A stretch of 64,000 nucleotides of DNA, from positions 1-64,000 of IMG/VR virus record IMGVR_UViG_3300002835_007523; one strand, written 5' to 3'. Origin of the DNA: a virus. Below the pieces are notes generated by a model that saw only the letters and a program-made list of their open reading frames with translations, did not search any database and had not been told where the DNA came from. Below, piece after piece: positions 726-63,542 of this stretch (positions are counted from its first letter, which is position 1; each line of letters opens with the position of its first letter). The translations under genes were made by a program, and so were the position numbers.

Positions 726-784
726 TAGCTTGCCGAATTCGCGGGAGCTACAAATAACTTGCTTAACTAAAGGAGTTAATCATG
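726..784 (+). promoter_or_regulatory. ROSE-like RNA thermometer in the hsp20 5' UTR
   Basis: UUGCU (759-763) pairs with the AGGAG SD leaving a bulged G (TAACTTGCTT/AAGGAGTTA); upstream TAGCT/AGCTA hairpin. Confidence 0.6.
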
Positions 785-1219
785 ATGGCATTTATGGGTC
801 AAACCCAAAATTCAATTCCCTTTACAGCCTGGCCATGGATGGTCGGCTTTGATCGTCAATTAGACACTATCGAAAAAATCCACTCTTCTGTAGGTCGAGG
901 CAGTGGCTATCCTCCATACAACATCATCAAGAACGACGAAGATAGCTATGTCGTCGAAATGGCGGTTGCGGGATTCACAAAGGATGAAATCTCTATTGAG
1001 GTCCAAGACTCTGTACTCACAGTCGAGGGTGAGAAGGCGGAAGCGACAGATCGAGATTACCTACACAAAGGGATCGGTACTCGTAGCTTCAGACAGACCT
1101 TTGTCCTAGCTGAGTACGTCGAGATCGCAAAAGCGGCCCTAACTGATGGTGTATTGACAATCTCTCTAATTCGTGAACTACCGGAGGCTAAAAAGCCTAA
1201 GACTATAGAGATCATCTGA
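782..1219 (+). CDS. hsp20: small heat-shock protein (Hsp20/IbpA family)
   Basis: YPPYNII, EMAVAGF, YLHKGIGTRSF, LTDGVLTI and C-terminal IEI motifs. Confidence 0.95.
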   Translation: MMAFMGQTQNSIPFTAWPWMVGFDRQLDTIEKIHSSVGRGSGYPPYNIIKNDEDSYVVEMAVAGFTKDEISIEVQDSVLTVEGEKAEATDRDYLHKGIGTRSFRQTFVLAEYVEIAKAALTDGVLTISLIRELPEAKKPKTIEII

Positions 1220-1310
1220 TATAGTTACCGGTGGCAGTCGCCTTTCACTGCCTTTAAGGATCCTCCTCTGTCTAGCTGCCTACCTCTCTTGCTACAGGGG
1301 AGGATCCCCT
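1217..1310 (+). ncRNA. putative two-hairpin small RNA with pyrimidine-rich, anti-SD-like loops
   Basis: TGATATAGT extended -10 at 1217-1225; hairpin 1233-1252 with loop CGCCTTTC; 14-bp stem 1258-1307 with loop TGCCTACCTCTCTT. Confidence 0.45.
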
Positions 1311-1332
1311 CACAGCTTAGAGAGGAGCTGTT

Positions 1333-1899
1333 ATGACAACACTTATCGCCATACAAGGCAAGGGTTGGTCTGTCATTGGATGTGATTCAAGAGCATCAGA
1401 TGAAAACGGCAGATTAACTGAAATGGCAACACATAAGATCGTAGAGAACAAAGGTGTACTTATTGCAGGCGCTGGTGCATCCCGCGGATCTAATATCCTG
1501 CAATTTGGTTGGACTCCACCTAAGCCACGTAGTAGTCAAGATCTAGATATCTTTATGACTAAAACTTTTATCCCAGCGATGCGTAAAGCATTCATTGAGT
1601 CTGGTTATGATATGAAAGAAGATGGCGATGCCGCAGCTCACGATTCTCATTTTATTATTTCAGTAAGGGGCGTTATCTATCCAATATACGGCGACTACTC
1701 ATGGGATAGAGAAGAACGAGGTATCTACTACGCAGGTAGCGGTGCAGACATTGCATTGGGAGCGTTAGAGGCGATGAACTATAAACGTGTCAAGACACCG
1801 GAGGCCGCCGAAAAAGTCCTCCGAAAGGCGATTGAAATTGCTATACGACACGACGTGTATTCTGGGGGAGAGATCCGCACACACATTCAAAAGTCTTAA
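1333..1899 (+). CDS. proteasome beta-subunit/HslV-like Ntn protease
   Basis: N-terminal MTTLIAI (Thr nucleophile), DSR, HKI, GSG..ALGAL and D.YSGG motifs. Confidence 0.85.
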   Translation: MTTLIAIQGKGWSVIGCDSRASDENGRLTEMATHKIVENKGVLIAGAGASRGSNILQFGWTPPKPRSSQDLDIFMTKTFIPAMRKAFIESGYDMKEDGDAAAHDSHFIISVRGVIYPIYGDYSWDREERGIYYAGSGADIALGALEAMNYKRVKTPEAAEKVLRKAIEIAIRHDVYSGGEIRTHIQKS

Positions 1900-15753: not shown

Positions 15754-15793
15754 GGTACCCGGCTTCGTTACCCCTTCTCCGAAGCCGGGCACC
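15754..15793 (+). other. stem-loop with anti-SD-like loop TTACCCCTTCTC
   Basis: GGTACCCGGCTTCG/CGAAGCCGGGCACC stem with no U-tract; TAAACT -10-like box at 15739-15744. Confidence 0.6.
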
Positions 15794-18696: not shown

Positions 18697-19773
18697 ATGG
18701 CATCAGCCGTAACAGGTACCGGTAATCTCGCCGCGTCACCTACAGCGTATTCTGGCGCTAATAGCCAGCTTACCCAAGCAATTCAAACAATCTGGTCAAA
18801 GGAAATCCTTTTCCAGTCAATGCCGATTCTTCGCTTCGAACAGTTCGCTGTTAAGAAGACTGAACTAGGCGTTGCACCTGGTCTCCAGATTAACTTTATG
18901 CGTTACAACAACCTCGGCTTCGCTTCAGCGCTTGTTGAAGGTGTTCGTATGCAGACAAACGCATTGACAGCACAGCAATTTTCAATTACTGTTGCAGAGC
19001 ACGGATACGCAATTGCAGTATCTGAACTTCTTCTCAATGCATCCTTCGACGATGTGATGGCATCTGCTTCACGTCTTCTTGGTCGCAACATGGCCCTCTA
19101 TCTTGATGGCCAGGCACGCGACACACTCATGGCAGCATCTTCCGTTATTTACGGTTATGATCGTTCTGCTAACGTAGCAGTCAATGACTGGTACACATCA
19201 GGTACTGTTGGATCTTCCCGTGCTTCTTTGACCGGTAACTTCCACCTAACCACCTCTACTGTTAAGGATGCAGTCGAGACTCTAGCAACCAAGAACATTC
19301 CACGGTTGGGCGAAACCTACGTGGCATTCGTTCACCCACACCAGAGCCGTCGTCTTCGTGATCTTCCAGAATTTATTGAAGTCACTAAGTACGCTGCTCC
19401 AGGTAACTTCATGCTCGGTGAAATTGGTCGTCTATACGACACAGTATTCATTGAGACCACACAGATCCAGAAGGTAACAAACGGTGCAGGTTCAGGTTAC
19501 ACAACTGACACCGCTGTTGCTCCTGGCTCAATTGTCTACCCAACTGGTGGAGGTTACACCACCCCAGTAACAAAGACCGGTAACGGTAACAAGGATCGCT
19601 ACACAGCAATCTTTATTGGTGACAATGCATTCGGTCACGCAATCTCCCTTCCAGTCGAACTCCGCGATGGCGGTATTCTTGACTTCGGTCGTGAGCATGC
19701 GCTTGCTTGGTACGCTATCTATGGTCTTGGTCTTATTACTGACCAGTCTGTAGTCTTGGCAGAAACCAACTAA
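18697..19773 (+). CDS. major capsid protein (N4-gp56-like)
   Basis: 358 aa after the scaffold; YVAFVHP, GEIGRL, FIET and ALAWYAIYG motifs. Confidence 0.92.
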   Translation: MASAVTGTGNLAASPTAYSGANSQLTQAIQTIWSKEILFQSMPILRFEQFAVKKTELGVAPGLQINFMRYNNLGFASALVEGVRMQTNALTAQQFSITVAEHGYAIAVSELLLNASFDDVMASASRLLGRNMALYLDGQARDTLMAASSVIYGYDRSANVAVNDWYTSGTVGSSRASLTGNFHLTTSTVKDAVETLATKNIPRLGETYVAFVHPHQSRRLRDLPEFIEVTKYAAPGNFMLGEIGRLYDTVFIETTQIQKVTNGAGSGYTTDTAVAPGSIVYPTGGGYTTPVTKTGNGNKDRYTAIFIGDNAFGHAISLPVELRDGGILDFGREHALAWYAIYGLGLITDQSVVLAETN

Positions 19774-19782
19774 GAACTTTAT

Positions 19783-19809
19783 GACCTGGGTATGTCTTAA
19801 AACTGCCCA
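19783..19809 (+). other. compact H-type pseudoknot candidate after the MCP stop
   Basis: GAC/GTC and TGGGTA/TGCCCA interleaved. Confidence 0.45.
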
Positions 19810-19840: not shown

Positions 19841-20206
19841 GTGGCAAAAGCAAAAGTTACTGATTTTACTGGCCGTCAACGTGAAGAAATGATGAAGGCC
19901 AACGCAGAAGCTCTCGCAAAGAGGGCTGAAGAAATGACACTAGCCTCACAAGTTGAGGCGGAGAGACTAGAGACTGAAGTCTATGATCTTACAACAGGAT
20001 CAGAGCCAACAGTTATCGATGAAGTCGAGTCTCTGGGCGTAACAAGTGCAGACGACAGTCAAGTTATTCGTCTAGCTGAAGATCTAGAATTTGTAACAAT
20101 CGGCGTAGGAAATAACTATTCCTTTAAGGCCGGACAAAAGTATAAGGTTCCGAAGAATGTGGCAGCACACCTTCAAGAAAAAGGATACCTATACGAGCGC
20201 CTCTAA
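19841..20206 (+). CDS. head-associated hypothetical protein
   Basis: AGGAG SD, GTG start, directly after the MCP. Confidence 0.75.
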   Translation: MAKAKVTDFTGRQREEMMKANAEALAKRAEEMTLASQVEAERLETEVYDLTTGSEPTVIDEVESLGVTSADDSQVIRLAEDLEFVTIGVGNNYSFKAGQKYKVPKNVAAHLQEKGYLYERL

Positions 20207-20222
20207 GGCACATATCTAGGAC

Positions 20223-20267
20223 GCCCGCTTCGACTAAACGCCCTCCTGTCGAAGCGGGTCTTTTTTT
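20223..20267 (+). terminator. intrinsic terminator with a 13-nt anti-SD loop
   Basis: GCCCGCTTCGAC/GTCGAAGCGGGT stem, loop TAAACGCCCTCCT, T7 tail. Confidence 0.85.
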
Positions 20268-20331
20268 AACCTGTACAACTTAAGCTTATTTGAGATTATT
20301 AGATAAGTAGATCTTGAGGATATGAGGATAA

Positions 20332-21401
20332 GTGGCAACTTTAGCATCCCTCGCTGACCGCTTGAGGGCAGAAATTGGCGATATAGCCCGCTCATTCACT
20401 GAGGAGTTACGCGGTGACGGAGAATCAAAAAGATTCCAATTAACTGAGGCCCCAATAAATGCAGCTTCACTTTCGATAAAGGTGAACGGCGTAGAAGTAT
20501 CCTCCACCGCAACTATAGAAGAAGTTACTGGAATGATTCAGCTATCTTCTGCCCCTATTGATGGGGCAACCGTATATATTTCTGGAACCTCATTTAAATA
20601 CTTTACAGATACAGAAATTCAATACTATGTAAACACTGCGTTTATAGAGCACGCAAGAAGCATTACAGACAGTAACGGTAGCCGAGTTACTATGGCAACC
20701 CTTCCAGCTATTGACGAGTATCCAGTAGTTCTTTTGGCATCTACTATGGCCCTGTATACCCTGGCTACAGATGCAGCTTTTGATATTGACATTATCTCTC
20801 CAGACGGAGTTTCTATTCCTCGTTCCGAGCGTTATCGCCAGCTCATGGAAACAGTTACAAATAGAAAAGAACAATACCGAGAGCTTTGCAACATGCTTGG
20901 CACCGGTATGTACAAGATCGAAGTATTCACTCTACGCAAGATTAGTCGACGTACAAACAAGTACGTACCGATTTATCGTCCACAGGAAATCGACGATGGG
21001 TCTATGCCACAAAGAGTCTACCTACAAATGCCAGACTATGGCGACATTACCTTGCCAAGTCCAGTTACTAATAAAGATCTTTCTTTGTACTCAGGAGACG
21101 ACTTTGACATCCAGCTCAAATTCTCTATGGACCTATCAACTTACACGCCTCTTGCACAAATTAGACTTTTCCCAACATTCCCATCAAATCAGGTGGGCCC
21201 AGTTATCCTTACTACCTTTGAAACTACGATAACAGCATCTGTACCTGGAGGAATACTCGATACATTAAATCTTCACTTGGATAGTGATGTTACTGCAAAG
21301 CTTCCAAGAACGGCATATTACGACATACAACTTACATCAAGCACAGGTCTTGTTAGAACGTATCTAGAGGGCAAAGTATTTACTAAACCTCAGGTATCGA
21401 A

Positions 21402-21405
<4 letters not shown>
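20332..21405 (+). CDS. head-tail adaptor or neck protein with C-terminal Ig/BppU-like domain
   Basis: LRAEIGD and YFTDTEI adaptor motifs; C-terminal YDIQLT...YLEGKV. Confidence 0.6.
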
Positions 21406-33703: not shown

Positions 33704-33720
33704 CGGCCATCGGAGGGCCA

Positions 33721-34794
33721 ATGAAAATAGCTGTATACACGATTGCATTAAACGAAGAGCAGTTTGTAGAAAAATGGTATCAGTCAGCAAAAGAAGCTGA
33801 CTATCTACTAATTGCAGATACTGGTTCTACTGACCTAACTAAAAAATATGCCAGGAACTACGGCATAAATGTCATTGACATCTCTGTAAAACCTTGGCGT
33901 TTTGATGATGCTCGTAACGCTGCCCTTGCAGCTTTACCCAACGACATTGATATATGTATAGCCTTGGATATGGACGAAGTTCTAGTGCCTGGATGGCGTT
34001 GGCACCTAGACCGAATGTCAAAAGATACTACCCGTCCAAGATACAAGTACACGTGGAATTGGAATGAAGACGGAACTCCAGGCCTTCAGTACGGTGGAGA
34101 TAAGATACATGCTCGTCACGGCTATCGGTGGAAACACCCAGTTCATGAAGTATTAACTACCGACCGTATAGATGAGATTCAAACCTGGATAGGTTTAGAG
34201 ATTCACCACCATGCAGACAACTCAAAGCCTAGATCTCAATATATGCCCCTTCTTGCACAGTCTGTAAAAGAAGACCCATATGACGATAGAAATGCCTTTT
34301 ACTACGCTAGAGAATTATTCTTCTATGGACAATTTGATGCGGCCATTGAAGAATTTAAACGTCACCTATCTTTACCAAAAGCGGTATGGAGACCAGAACG
34401 AGCAGCATCTATGAGGTATATATCTAAACTTATGAAAGAATTTACAGAAAAAGAAGCTTGGCTTAAGAAGGCAGTTAATGAGGCTCCCGATAGAAGAGAG
34501 CCCTATGTAGAACTAGCAAAGCTGTACTATGAAAATAACCGTTGGTTTGACTGTCTAGATGCCGCAGAAAACGCACTTGAAATTACTGAAAAGCCCCTAG
34601 AGTATTTATGTGAGGAGTTTGCCTGGGGTTCTGCGCCCTGGGACTATGCGGCTATAGCGGCCCATAACCTAGGTTTATCGGATAAAGCCATTCAATACGG
34701 CACTAAGGCCGTAGAATTAAACCCGAATGATCAACGCCTAATAACAAACTTGGCTTTCTACACTAAGGAGCACCCTCTTGGCGACAATATATAA
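33721..34794 (+). CDS. GT2 glycosyltransferase with C-terminal TPR repeats
   Basis: IALNEE, DTGSTD, FDDARN, LDMDE, HPVHE; helical TPR C-terminus. Confidence 0.9.
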   Translation: MKIAVYTIALNEEQFVEKWYQSAKEADYLLIADTGSTDLTKKYARNYGINVIDISVKPWRFDDARNAALAALPNDIDICIALDMDEVLVPGWRWHLDRMSKDTTRPRYKYTWNWNEDGTPGLQYGGDKIHARHGYRWKHPVHEVLTTDRIDEIQTWIGLEIHHHADNSKPRSQYMPLLAQSVKEDPYDDRNAFYYARELFFYGQFDAAIEEFKRHLSLPKAVWRPERAASMRYISKLMKEFTEKEAWLKKAVNEAPDRREPYVELAKLYYENNRWFDCLDAAENALEITEKPLEYLCEEFAWGSAPWDYAAIAAHNLGLSDKAIQYGTKAVELNPNDQRLITNLAFYTKEHPLGDNI

Positions 34795-56336: not shown

Positions 56337-56365
56337 AACTACACCATTGAGGCTAGGAGGGCCAA

Positions 56366-58695: not shown

Positions 58696-59921
58696 TGGCA
58701 GCAGATAATGAGATTCGCCTCCTGTCAAAAGCAATACGAGATAGGGATATATCTCCACTTTTAGATCGAGGCATTCAAGACGGTTGGTTTTACGTAGATG
58801 AAAATAGGGCTGTTTGGAAGTTCCTACGGGAGCATGTAGCCAAGTATTCCGAGGTACCCACAGCAACTACCGTAAAGGATAATTTTCCTAACTTTAGGCT
58901 TTTAAACGTAGAGGACTCCCTGGAGTACCTGGTAGATCAGCTCTCTGAGTTTCGTATCCGCCAAAAGACCATAGAGCTGGTTCAGACGGCCGGAACCCTT
59001 ATTGCCGACGGAGATCATAGGGGAGCCCTTGAACAGGTCTCTATGGGCCTTGCAAAGCTCCAGGACGAGGGCGTAGGAAAGTCCTCAGACATAGACCTGA
59101 CCAAAGAGCCTCTAAGTCGCTTTGACGAGTACTTGAATATTAAAACCCGCCCTAACGGGCTCCTTGGCATGTCCACAGGATTTAAGGGTATAGACGTTGC
59201 AACTGCCGGTTTACAGCCCCAACAGTTAGTGACAATTGTTGCTCCCCCTAAAACTGGTAAATCAGTGCTCTCAATGCAGATGGCAGTAAATATTCATGAA
59301 GATGGTTTTGTTCCTATGTTTCAGTCTTTTGAAATGACTAATCTTGAGCAACAGAGACGACATGACTCAATGAGGGCGCACATCTCTCATTCTCGTTTAA
59401 TTCGTGGAGCTTTGAAACCAGAAGAAGAAGAGCGCTATAGACTGATGTTGGAACGCATGGAAAAAATGCACAACTTCTATTTAACGGATTCTGTCTCTGC
59501 CCTAACTTTAACTTCATTGTCTATAAAAATAGACAAGATTAGGCCTGATGCTGTTTTTGTTGACGGTGTTTATTTGATGGTTGACGAGATGACGGGTGAG
59601 TCAAATACCCCTATGGCGCTTACCAACATAACCCGCGGAATGAAGCGACTTGCACAAAAGCATAATGTTCCTATTGTCATGAGCACTCAAGCTCTTCGTC
59701 ACAAAATGCGTGGAGGAAAAGTTACCTCTGACTCAATCGGTTATTCGTCTTCCTTTGTCCAAGACTCTGACATAGTTATGACTTTAGAGCGTCAGGACGA
59801 GGAAGACGATAGTTCAAGAGTTCTTAGAATAGATAAAAGCCGTAATAGCGCTCCTGCAGAGATAGAGCTTTTGTGGGACTGGGAGGAAGGAAAGTTCCAA
59901 GAGTATGGACAGTCCATTTAA
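58695..59921 (+). CDS. dnaB: replicative DNA helicase (DnaB-like)
   Basis: TGF..ID...GL, APPKTGKS, SFEM, VFVDG, QDSD and K.R motifs; TAATG start at 58695. Confidence 0.92.
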   Translation: MAADNEIRLLSKAIRDRDISPLLDRGIQDGWFYVDENRAVWKFLREHVAKYSEVPTATTVKDNFPNFRLLNVEDSLEYLVDQLSEFRIRQKTIELVQTAGTLIADGDHRGALEQVSMGLAKLQDEGVGKSSDIDLTKEPLSRFDEYLNIKTRPNGLLGMSTGFKGIDVATAGLQPQQLVTIVAPPKTGKSVLSMQMAVNIHEDGFVPMFQSFEMTNLEQQRRHDSMRAHISHSRLIRGALKPEEEERYRLMLERMEKMHNFYLTDSVSALTLTSLSIKIDKIRPDAVFVDGVYLMVDEMTGESNTPMALTNITRGMKRLAQKHNVPIVMSTQALRHKMRGGKVTSDSIGYSSSFVQDSDIVMTLERQDEEDDSSRVLRIDKSRNSAPAEIELLWDWEEGKFQEYGQSI

Positions 59922-60147
59922 CGGAACTCAACTTTGTTCTAAAGTTGATGATCCTGAAATTTTCTTTCCAGAAGATTACTTAGATACTAAGCATCTTTCT
60001 ATGGTAAGGGCTATTTGTAACGGGTGCCCAATAATTTCTGGATGTTTAGAGTATGCGATAAAGGATCCTTCTTTAGAGGGTATCTGGGCTGGAACAACTC
60101 CTAGACAGAGATTAAAGATTCGTTCTAGAAGGAGACAGTCCGCATGA
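59905..60147 (+). CDS. whiB: WhiB-family transcription regulator
   Basis: C...DPEIFFP...C.GCP....CLEYA...GIWAG. Confidence 0.93.
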   Translation: MDSPFNGTQLCSKVDDPEIFFPEDYLDTKHLSMVRAICNGCPIISGCLEYAIKDPSLEGIWAGTTPRQRLKIRSRRRQSA

Positions 60148-63037: not shown

Positions 63038-63104
63038 GCTACCGGGTTGCACTTTGTCAGTGGGTGGGTATAAGCTATAGCAAAACTTACCTAGGAGGGT
63101 AATC

Positions 63105-63542
63105 ATGGCAAAAGTTGCTACACCACCACGCAAACCGAGCTCTAATCCATTGATGGTTAAAGTTCGTGAATTTATTTCATATAAAAAGCAAATAGATAAA
63201 CTATCTAAAGCGCAGGACGAGATTAAAAAAGATCTCATGCAAACCGTTGAAGAAATTGGAGAGGTCGATGATGCTGGTCATCAGTGGCTTCAACTTCCAG
63301 AAGAAGTAGACGGCTATGCTGCTCTACAGCGTCAGCGTCGTGTATCTCAAAAGCTTGATATGGATGCTGCTGAAGAGATCCTAAAGAAAAAGGGCCTATA
63401 CGAAAAGTGCGTAACTATGGTTCCTATGATTGAAGAGGACGCTGTTATGGGCGCCCTATATCTTGGTGAACTTACTGAGGAAGAAGTAGATCAGATATTC
63501 CCAAAGACTATAACTTGGGCATTCGTTCCTAAGAAAGCTTAA
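63105..63542 (+). CDS. hypothetical protein with coiled-coil N-terminus
   Basis: AGGAGG SD; upstream GGGTATAAG -10-like box. Confidence 0.75.
   Translation: MAKVATPPRKPSSNPLMVKVREFISYKKQIDKLSKAQDEIKKDLMQTVEEIGEVDDAGHQWLQLPEEVDGYAALQRQRRVSQKLDMDAAEEILKKKGLYEKCVTMVPMIEEDAVMGALYLGELTEEEVDQIFPKTITWAFVPKKA

Follow-up and report, generated by a model that had tools for sequence, protein, structure and literature searches.

Why should the terminator behind the head genes of a freshwater phage carry an apical loop of 13 nucleotides, when the other clear terminators of the same genome have loops of 3-7 nt? A sequence-only reading of this locus had remarked on the unusual size of the loop, which these measurements bear out, and had proposed that the loop is an antisense RNA directed at the ribosome binding site (RBS) of a replication initiator. 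The locus belongs to a single phage contig of 99,093 bp with a G+C content of 43%, and its first 64 kb (64,000 nucleotides) form the whole stretch of DNA under analysis, called the window here. The phage is a freshwater myophage, with tail sheath and baseplate genes following the head genes; close relatives of its capsid protein are encoded by about 600 IMG/VR contigs, and its DNA is present in many lake metagenomes as well as in contigs from six lake metatranscriptome runs. The host is probably an actinobacterium, because the phage carries three WhiB-family genes and because the bacterial relatives found for one of these WhiB proteins belong to the Actinomycetota, or to the Saccharibacteria and one Phycisphaerales MAG. 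The features around the hairpin, designated hairpin B, are as follows.

13620: large terminase gene of the structural block, in which the order is large terminase, portal, scaffold, major capsid protein, then tail sheath and baseplate
18697..19773, plus strand: major capsid protein gene, 73-75% amino acid identity to the capsid proteins of the Streptomyces phages LuckySocke and BRock
19841..20206, plus strand: last gene of the head block, 121 aa
20223..20259, plus strand: hairpin B, stem-loop of an intrinsic terminator, from the fold, covariation in 34 relatives and a covariance model
20235..20247, plus strand: apical loop B, 13 nt, TAAACGCCCTCCT; in relatives, loops of 10-17 nt with the same core
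20239..20247, plus strand: loop core CGCCCTCCT, family consensus YGCCCUCYU, including the anti-SD hexamer CCUCCU
20260..20267, plus strand: C and T7 tract after the stem (T7 = 20261-20267)
20271..20299, plus strand: promoter-like boxes, inferred from intergenic alignment columns (CTGAC, 17 nt, GAT[G/T]AT in relatives)
20332..21405, plus strand: first gene of the tail block, with a weak LtfC-like match below the Pfam cut-off
59905-60147 of the window, and 69043-69360 and 94552-94881 of the genome: the three WhiB-family genes

The stem of hairpin B (20223-20234 with 20248-20259) has 12 base pairs, eight of them G-C and one a G.U pair at the base, and folds with a minimum free energy of -24.6 kcal/mol (z = -3.9 against shuffles), while its loop contains seven C. 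Its base lies 16 nt (20207-20222) past the stop of the 121-aa gene, and the next gene begins 72 nt beyond it. With a GC-rich hairpin, an immediate U-tract and a position between the last head gene and promoter-like boxes, hairpin B is predicted to end the transcript of the head genes (portal, scaffold, capsid and 121-aa gene) as a Rho-independent terminator. The U-tract is weaker in many relatives (CCTTAACGTTTG type). Ordinary terminators of the same phage family resemble hairpin B in position, GC-rich stem and U-rich tail, but the fixed loop of 10-17 nt sets it apart, as such a loop is unneeded for termination and normally weakens it. Further downstream, within 20268-20334, the start region of the first tail gene, GGAGGAT-N3-GTG, is nearly invariant in relatives; the window itself has a weaker version of this start region and weaker promoter-like boxes than its relatives, the -35-like box being poor.

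The target originally proposed for loop B lies at the start of the replication block.

56355..56362, plus strand: AGGAGGGC, RBS of the first replication gene (weak DnaD-like match)
56366: start of the replication block, with a weak DnaD-like match, a DnaC-like loader, a DnaB-like helicase, a WhiB gene and a helicase
64842 of the genome, beyond the window: DNA polymerase gene (DNA polymerase I) of the replication block

According to the sequence-only reading, loop B would be a specific antisense RNA on this RBS and would work as a late-to-early switch. The complementarity itself is confirmed: GCCCTCCT in loop B is the exact reverse complement, over 8 nt, of AGGAGGGC, which lies 3 nt before the ATG of 56366, and their duplex is the best among all RBS windows (-16.6 kcal/mol). 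The further complements named in that reading, AGGAGGGT at 63093 and GGAGGGC at 33712, before the gene at 33721, are present as well, and the initiator-like gene does lead the replication block. However, chance alone would be expected to produce such a match (P about 0.6): AGGAGG occurs in the RBS windows of 11 of the 131 called genes and GGAGG in 18, and at least 8 nt match some RBS in 60% of trials with random 13-nt loops in which CCTCCT is retained, against 24% with permuted loops. The energies of loop-RBS duplexes track those of the 16S tail (r = 0.62), and the 16S tail outcompetes loop B on every RBS class. Nor are replication genes favoured as a class, as the enrichment of early over late targets would have it, since their RBSs pair with the loop no better than those of structural genes. 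Moreover, the loop is found in 34 relatives, yet a high-identity copy of the initiator-like gene occurs in this phage only, and its homologues of about 38% identity in three full relatives carry AGGAGGAG, AGGAGGGG or AGGAGGGT, from which the GC extension is absent. The two further RBSs were likewise rejected as targets; the match at 33721 is lost altogether in homologues, and at 63105 the extension is absent in homologues, save for AGGAGGGT at the 63105 homologue of one relative. The comparative data largely refute the initiator switch, which now appears hardly credible. Of the original antisense idea, the part that stands is that a C/U-rich, anti-SD-like terminator loop is under selection; the RBS-specific action on the initiator does not stand.

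The evidence for selection comes from the relatives. At the same intergenic spot, all 80 syntenic relatives have a hairpin. Within the nearest clade (capsid identity mostly at least 86%) its stems vary widely, for example GCCCGCTTCGAC, GCCCTCGTAGACA and GCTCAACTCCGACA, and despite these differing stems the loop still reads (A)NCGCCCTCC(T). Across 34 distinct IMG/VR relatives, 99% of the cells of the stem alignment are paired and compensatory double changes occur in 9 of the 12 pairs, with 79 double-changed cells against 20.7 in shuffles (0/500), while slid controls are only 35-44% paired; RNAalifold independently recovers the same stem. The 11-pair helix contains G.U pairs and zero non-standard cells (A.C included), and the only four unpaired cells of the stem are in the loop-closing pair. 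As G.U cells occur and A.C cells do not, the plus strand is the strand that is folded, as RNA. Reading the loop on the minus strand as an exposed SD was rejected, as no start codon follows the loop there and the G.U pattern favours the plus strand.

Pairwise identity is 0.88 in the loop core, 0.68 in the stem arms and 0.53-0.59 in the flanks. All changes within the core are C/T transitions, after two sequences (L010 and L047) that stood one column out of register are corrected by eye, and the top base pairs A18-U39 and C19-G38 are invariant across the 34 sequences. The loop is thus nearly unchanged while the stem is rewritten, so that loop B is a real RNA signal, and the loop with its two top pairs is a sequence-specific RNA signal that is under selection. 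The conservation of the loop presumed by the antisense idea is thereby borne out in 34 distinct relatives with differing stems, and it is the pattern looked for in C-rich-loop antisense regulators, a loop that is kept while its stem varies. In farther relatives the terminator at this position is a simple one with a UUCG tetraloop, and the large loop is therefore an added, clade-specific feature. With a covariance model of the hairpin, each of four full genomes yields exactly one copy, and none is found in the distant clade or in the loci of cultured Streptomyces phages; in LuckySocke and BRock no intergenic gap follows the homologous gene, so that there is no hairpin B. Where the core 8-mer recurs elsewhere in these four genomes, it does not lie within a hairpin loop, and no avoidance of CCTCC was seen on the sense strand. 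The window has no Rfam match at gathering score, and the Rfam 6C family gives no match over 20150-20340 at E<=10, other matches there being at chance level. Hairpin B matches no catalogued RNA family, and it represents an uncatalogued motif of freshwater actinophages that is built into an mRNA terminator.

Four further hairpins of the genome bear on this signal.

1258..1306, plus strand: sibling hairpin, 14 bp, loop TGCCTACCTCTCTT, between hsp20 and an HslV-like gene
15758..15789, plus strand: hairpin A, stem of 10-14 bp, 12-nt CU-rich loop TTACCCCTTCTC (UUACCCCUUCUC), no U-tract
19787..19809, plus strand: hairpin M, directly after the capsid gene, weak here, with strong G/C-rich stems in relatives
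64777-64825 of the genome, beyond the window: hairpin C, immediately upstream of the DNA polymerase gene

Hairpin A lies 10 nt before the SD of a small gene ahead of portal; 12 relatives have CU-rich loops of the UAYCCYUUCUC type there on nine different stems, and some relatives have a GNRA tetraloop at this site instead. Hairpin C is kept in about 40 distinct relatives, the farthest of them with a polymerase identity of 57%, and its loops include UUUUACCUCCUUUCU, CCCUCCUCC and ACYUCCRUUU; ACCUCCUUUCU resembles the 16S tail, and UUUUACCUCCUUUCU is identical over 11 nt to the 3' tail of 16S rRNA. LuckySocke also has a hairpin with a pyrimidine loop at the place of hairpin C, between its SSB and DNA polymerase genes. 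By their loops and conservation, A and C are sibling hairpins of the same kind as B. The loop at 1258-1306 (CCTCTCT) is an exact 7-nt complement of the AGAGAGG RBS 13 nt downstream, and this hairpin is absent, together with its gene neighbourhood, from three full-length relatives. The sequence-only reading had placed both this hairpin and A beside B as anti-SD loops; both exist and A is conserved, but the one at 1258-1306 is not conserved in the three relatives. The same region of the window (782-1899) holds an Hsp20 small heat-shock gene beside a gene for an HslV/proteasome-like peptidase. In relatives (L002-L081), hairpin M reads GGGGGCGGG...CCCGCCCCC and has no U-tract; it is followed by AACACAAAC, which resembles the CCAACACAAACAT repeat of this genome.

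What could a conserved loop on conserved top pairs be recognised by? One answer is a protein. The loop and the invariant apical pairs (GAC(A)...(U)GUC) could form the site of an RNA-binding protein of phage or host, as an operator or as a signal for stability or processing, in the manner of the protein-binding hairpins of boxB-N, T4 gene 43 and the MS2 operators. Such a site would explain that A18-U39 and C19-G38 are invariant while nine other pairs co-vary, that the loop sequence is fixed beyond its SD-complementary part, and that no conserved RNA partner is found. Hairpin C also stands directly before the DNA polymerase gene, as does the operator hairpin that the polymerase of T4 binds before its own gene (gene 43). 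No candidate protein was found, however. The 121-aa gene adjoins the capsid gene in all relatives examined, and this includes those in which the terminator has a plain tetraloop; its product has neither a Pfam nor a PHROG match and thus no known domain, and its AlphaFold model is of low confidence (pLDDT 63.7), too poor for a structure search. In addition, transitions between C and U only would equally fit pairing with G. Recognition by a protein is a possible, if somewhat unlikely, explanation.

The other answer is an RNA, and a partner was sought accordingly in the phage genomes. In a comparison across four full genomes, the top complementary sites are not orthologous and none is conserved, so that the predicted covariation of loop and target is not seen in these relatives; neither a conserved nor a co-varying G-rich target, the second mark of a C-rich-loop regulator, is found among the phage sites. 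This genome contains no GGAGGGCG to match the conserved CG on the 5' side of the core. A site before a WhiB gene in one relative (G003) was discarded, as it reads GGGAGGAAGG in this phage, and a second recurrent site lies within the coding sequence of the portal gene. A strong duplex that recurs in relatives, about 455 nt upstream, is formed with the G-rich arm of hairpin M; this arm varies freely while the loop does not, and the duplex is therefore regarded as a compositional effect. Within +/-4 kb more generally, the sites that pair best belong to G-rich stem arms or to coding sequence and show no co-variation.

The most obvious partner in cis would be the next tail gene. On read-through RNA, loop B could pair with the GGAGGAT SD of this gene, which would then be translated only from transcripts of its own promoter. 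The strong conservation of GGAGGAT-N3-GTG about 75 nt after the hairpin speaks for this arrangement, as do the weak U-tracts of many relatives, which would permit read-through. However, the pairing amounts to 5 bp at most, with cognate and non-cognate energies of -8.10 and -8.07 kcal/mol, the same loop occurs in relatives with a weaker GAGGA SD, and the conserved CG of the core finds no partner at the downstream SD. For loops A, B and C alike, pairing with the next RBS was the same for cognate and non-cognate combinations; only site A was marginal (P = 0.04). For loops A and C, cognate pairing also equals that of shuffled loops, while for loop B shuffled loops pair less well, which is expected for any anti-SD-like loop. 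Masking of the downstream SD is improbable on these grounds.

The sequence might alternatively be read as DNA. A transcription factor, for instance a WhiB-like protein of the phage, could bind the motif and act on the downstream promoter, and the motif would lie between the arms of the terminator by chance. It does precede the next transcription unit, with about 60 bp between the motif and the inferred start of that unit, and the phage encodes three WhiB proteins. The alignment shows, however, that the spacing between the loop core and the -35-like box is not constant in relatives, ranging from 22 to 26 nt; loops A and C leave no room for a promoter after them, and all the loops are pyrimidine-rich on the transcribed strand. 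A DNA-level site is very improbable, and together with cis masking and the initiator switch it is less likely than pairing, protein binding or cleavage by RNase E.

The last of these would act on the loop as an exposed, C-rich segment. In mycobacteria, RNase E has a preference for C-rich RNA, in which it cuts just ahead of a cytidine, and most of its sites fall within UTRs or between genes (PMC10641625). As the actinobacterial enzyme cleaves single-stranded C-rich RNA on the 5' side of C, loop B could be a programmed entry site. A cut there would deprive the head mRNA of its protective 3' hairpin and thereby determine how long this mRNA lasts, or, at the sibling hairpins, would split the operon. 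Contigs from lake metatranscriptomes offer weak hints in this direction, as one stops inside loop B at 20242 and another inside loop A at 15774, where it passes straight into Illumina adapter sequence; contigs cannot, however, define RNA ends. The head genes are covered by contigs from four such RNA-library runs, which do not prove transcription. The depth of contigs peaks over the capsid gene and drops after 19773, across hairpin M, and again after about 20375, again a weak hint; uncovered stretches and depths per bin are not interpretable. At hairpin B itself, two contigs stop before or inside it and two run through, all of them assembled contigs only. Richness in C would moreover call for neither a near-invariant 9-mer nor invariant closing pairs, and destabilising the late mRNA that is most needed would bring the phage little gain. 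I consider an RNase E site unlikely.

The explanation I prefer, tentatively, is that loop B acts by base pairing with G-rich RNA of the SD type, in the manner of the 6C sRNA, although its partner would not be the initiator RBS. Several observations favour it, namely the CCUCCU within the motif, the restriction to C/U changes, by which pairing with G is kept, the probable actinobacterial host, a setting in which C-rich loops work without chaperones, and the siblings that resemble the 16S tail. Loop B would display the sequence-specific YGCCCUCYU with its anti-SD hexamer as a single strand, and every transcript that ends at the terminator would bear the motif on a nuclease-resistant 3' hairpin. 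Candidate partners are host mRNAs or the very strong SDs of a block of 22 minus-strand genes (84.6-98 kb of the genome), which has much stronger, extended SDs (e.g. AAGGAGGTGAT) and a mean duplex energy with the 16S tail of -12.5 kcal/mol, compared with about -7.3 kcal/mol in all other blocks. The minus-strand genes pair better with the loop only because their SDs are generally much stronger. In three actinobacterial genomes, which were reached via WhiB homologues, GGAGGGCGG is as frequent as its reversed control, a comparison that lacks the power to speak for or against host targets. Against pairing stand the results given above: no complementary phage site is conserved in the four full genomes, the cognate downstream RBS pairs no better than non-cognate ones, the conserved 5' CG of the core is without its GGAGGGCG counterpart, and the 16S tail outcompetes the loop. 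The invariant A-U and C-G pairs at the top are, furthermore, unneeded for antisense action and more typical of recognition by a protein.

C-rich anti-SD loops are already a known device, and the statement of the sequence-only reading that nothing like this had been described was too strong. In Actinobacteria, the 6C sRNA represses translation by binding its C-rich loops to G-rich RBSs without Hfq or ProQ (PMC6486639). Like 6C, hairpin B exposes an apical C-rich loop on a stable hairpin, and the inferred host is of the same phylum; unlike it, hairpin B is a single hairpin and the terminator of a phage mRNA, whereas 6C is host-encoded, stands alone and has several hairpins. Hairpin B neither fits the 6C covariance model nor has the two hairpins with loops of at least six C that define the family. 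In the Bacillota (RsaE/RoxS) and the Alphaproteobacteria (Cuckoo/CcsR RNAs), loops of the CCUCC type bind SD regions (PMC4615179). These share with hairpin B conserved CCUCC-type loops on variable stems, but they are tandem hairpins, encoded by cellular genes with their own promoters and belonging to different families. The seed position at the 3' end of an mRNA recalls the sRNAs CpxQ and NarS, which derive from 3'UTRs (PMC7038943). These enterobacterial RNAs require Hfq and processing by RNase E, and the likeness to hairpin B is one of 3'-end position. An SD-complementary sequence beside a terminator at the end of an mRNA is also known from icaR of Staphylococcus aureus, in which an anti-SD motif in the 3'UTR pairs with the 5'UTR of the same mRNA. 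In contrast to icaR, the SDs of the head operon itself (AAGGAG of the capsid gene, AGGAG of the 121-aa gene) give 5 bp only with loop B, and inspection of the sequences reveals no extended complementarity of the icaR type to an SD of the same mRNA.

A variant of the pairing idea, which I consider distinctly unlikely, is that hairpins A, B and C display mimics of the anti-SD tail of 16S rRNA on phage RNAs that are abundant. Such mimics could soak up the strongest SD leaders, those of the phage's own minus-strand block or of host messages, as infection proceeds, or they could act as decoys and lure away host factors by which the 16S tail is recognised. In Actinobacteria the anti-SD is a cleavage site of MazF-type toxins (PMC12274833), which would be an example of a factor to be decoyed. 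If true, this would be an undescribed phage strategy of anti-SD mimicry.

The comparative analysis removes the initiator RBS as a false lead and adds a well-supported RNA motif, with 34 distinct sequences, strong covariation and a single copy per genome. The phages that carry it are abundant in freshwater and probably infect uncultured Actinobacteria. The analysis also shows that, within an intergenic region, conservation can be highest in the loop of a terminator, although such loops are usually taken as spacers. Should this loop pair with SD-type RNA, phages of Actinobacteria that lack Hfq would share with the 6C sRNA of their hosts the logic of a C-rich loop that works without a chaperone, and they would have attached this logic to their most abundant late mRNAs.
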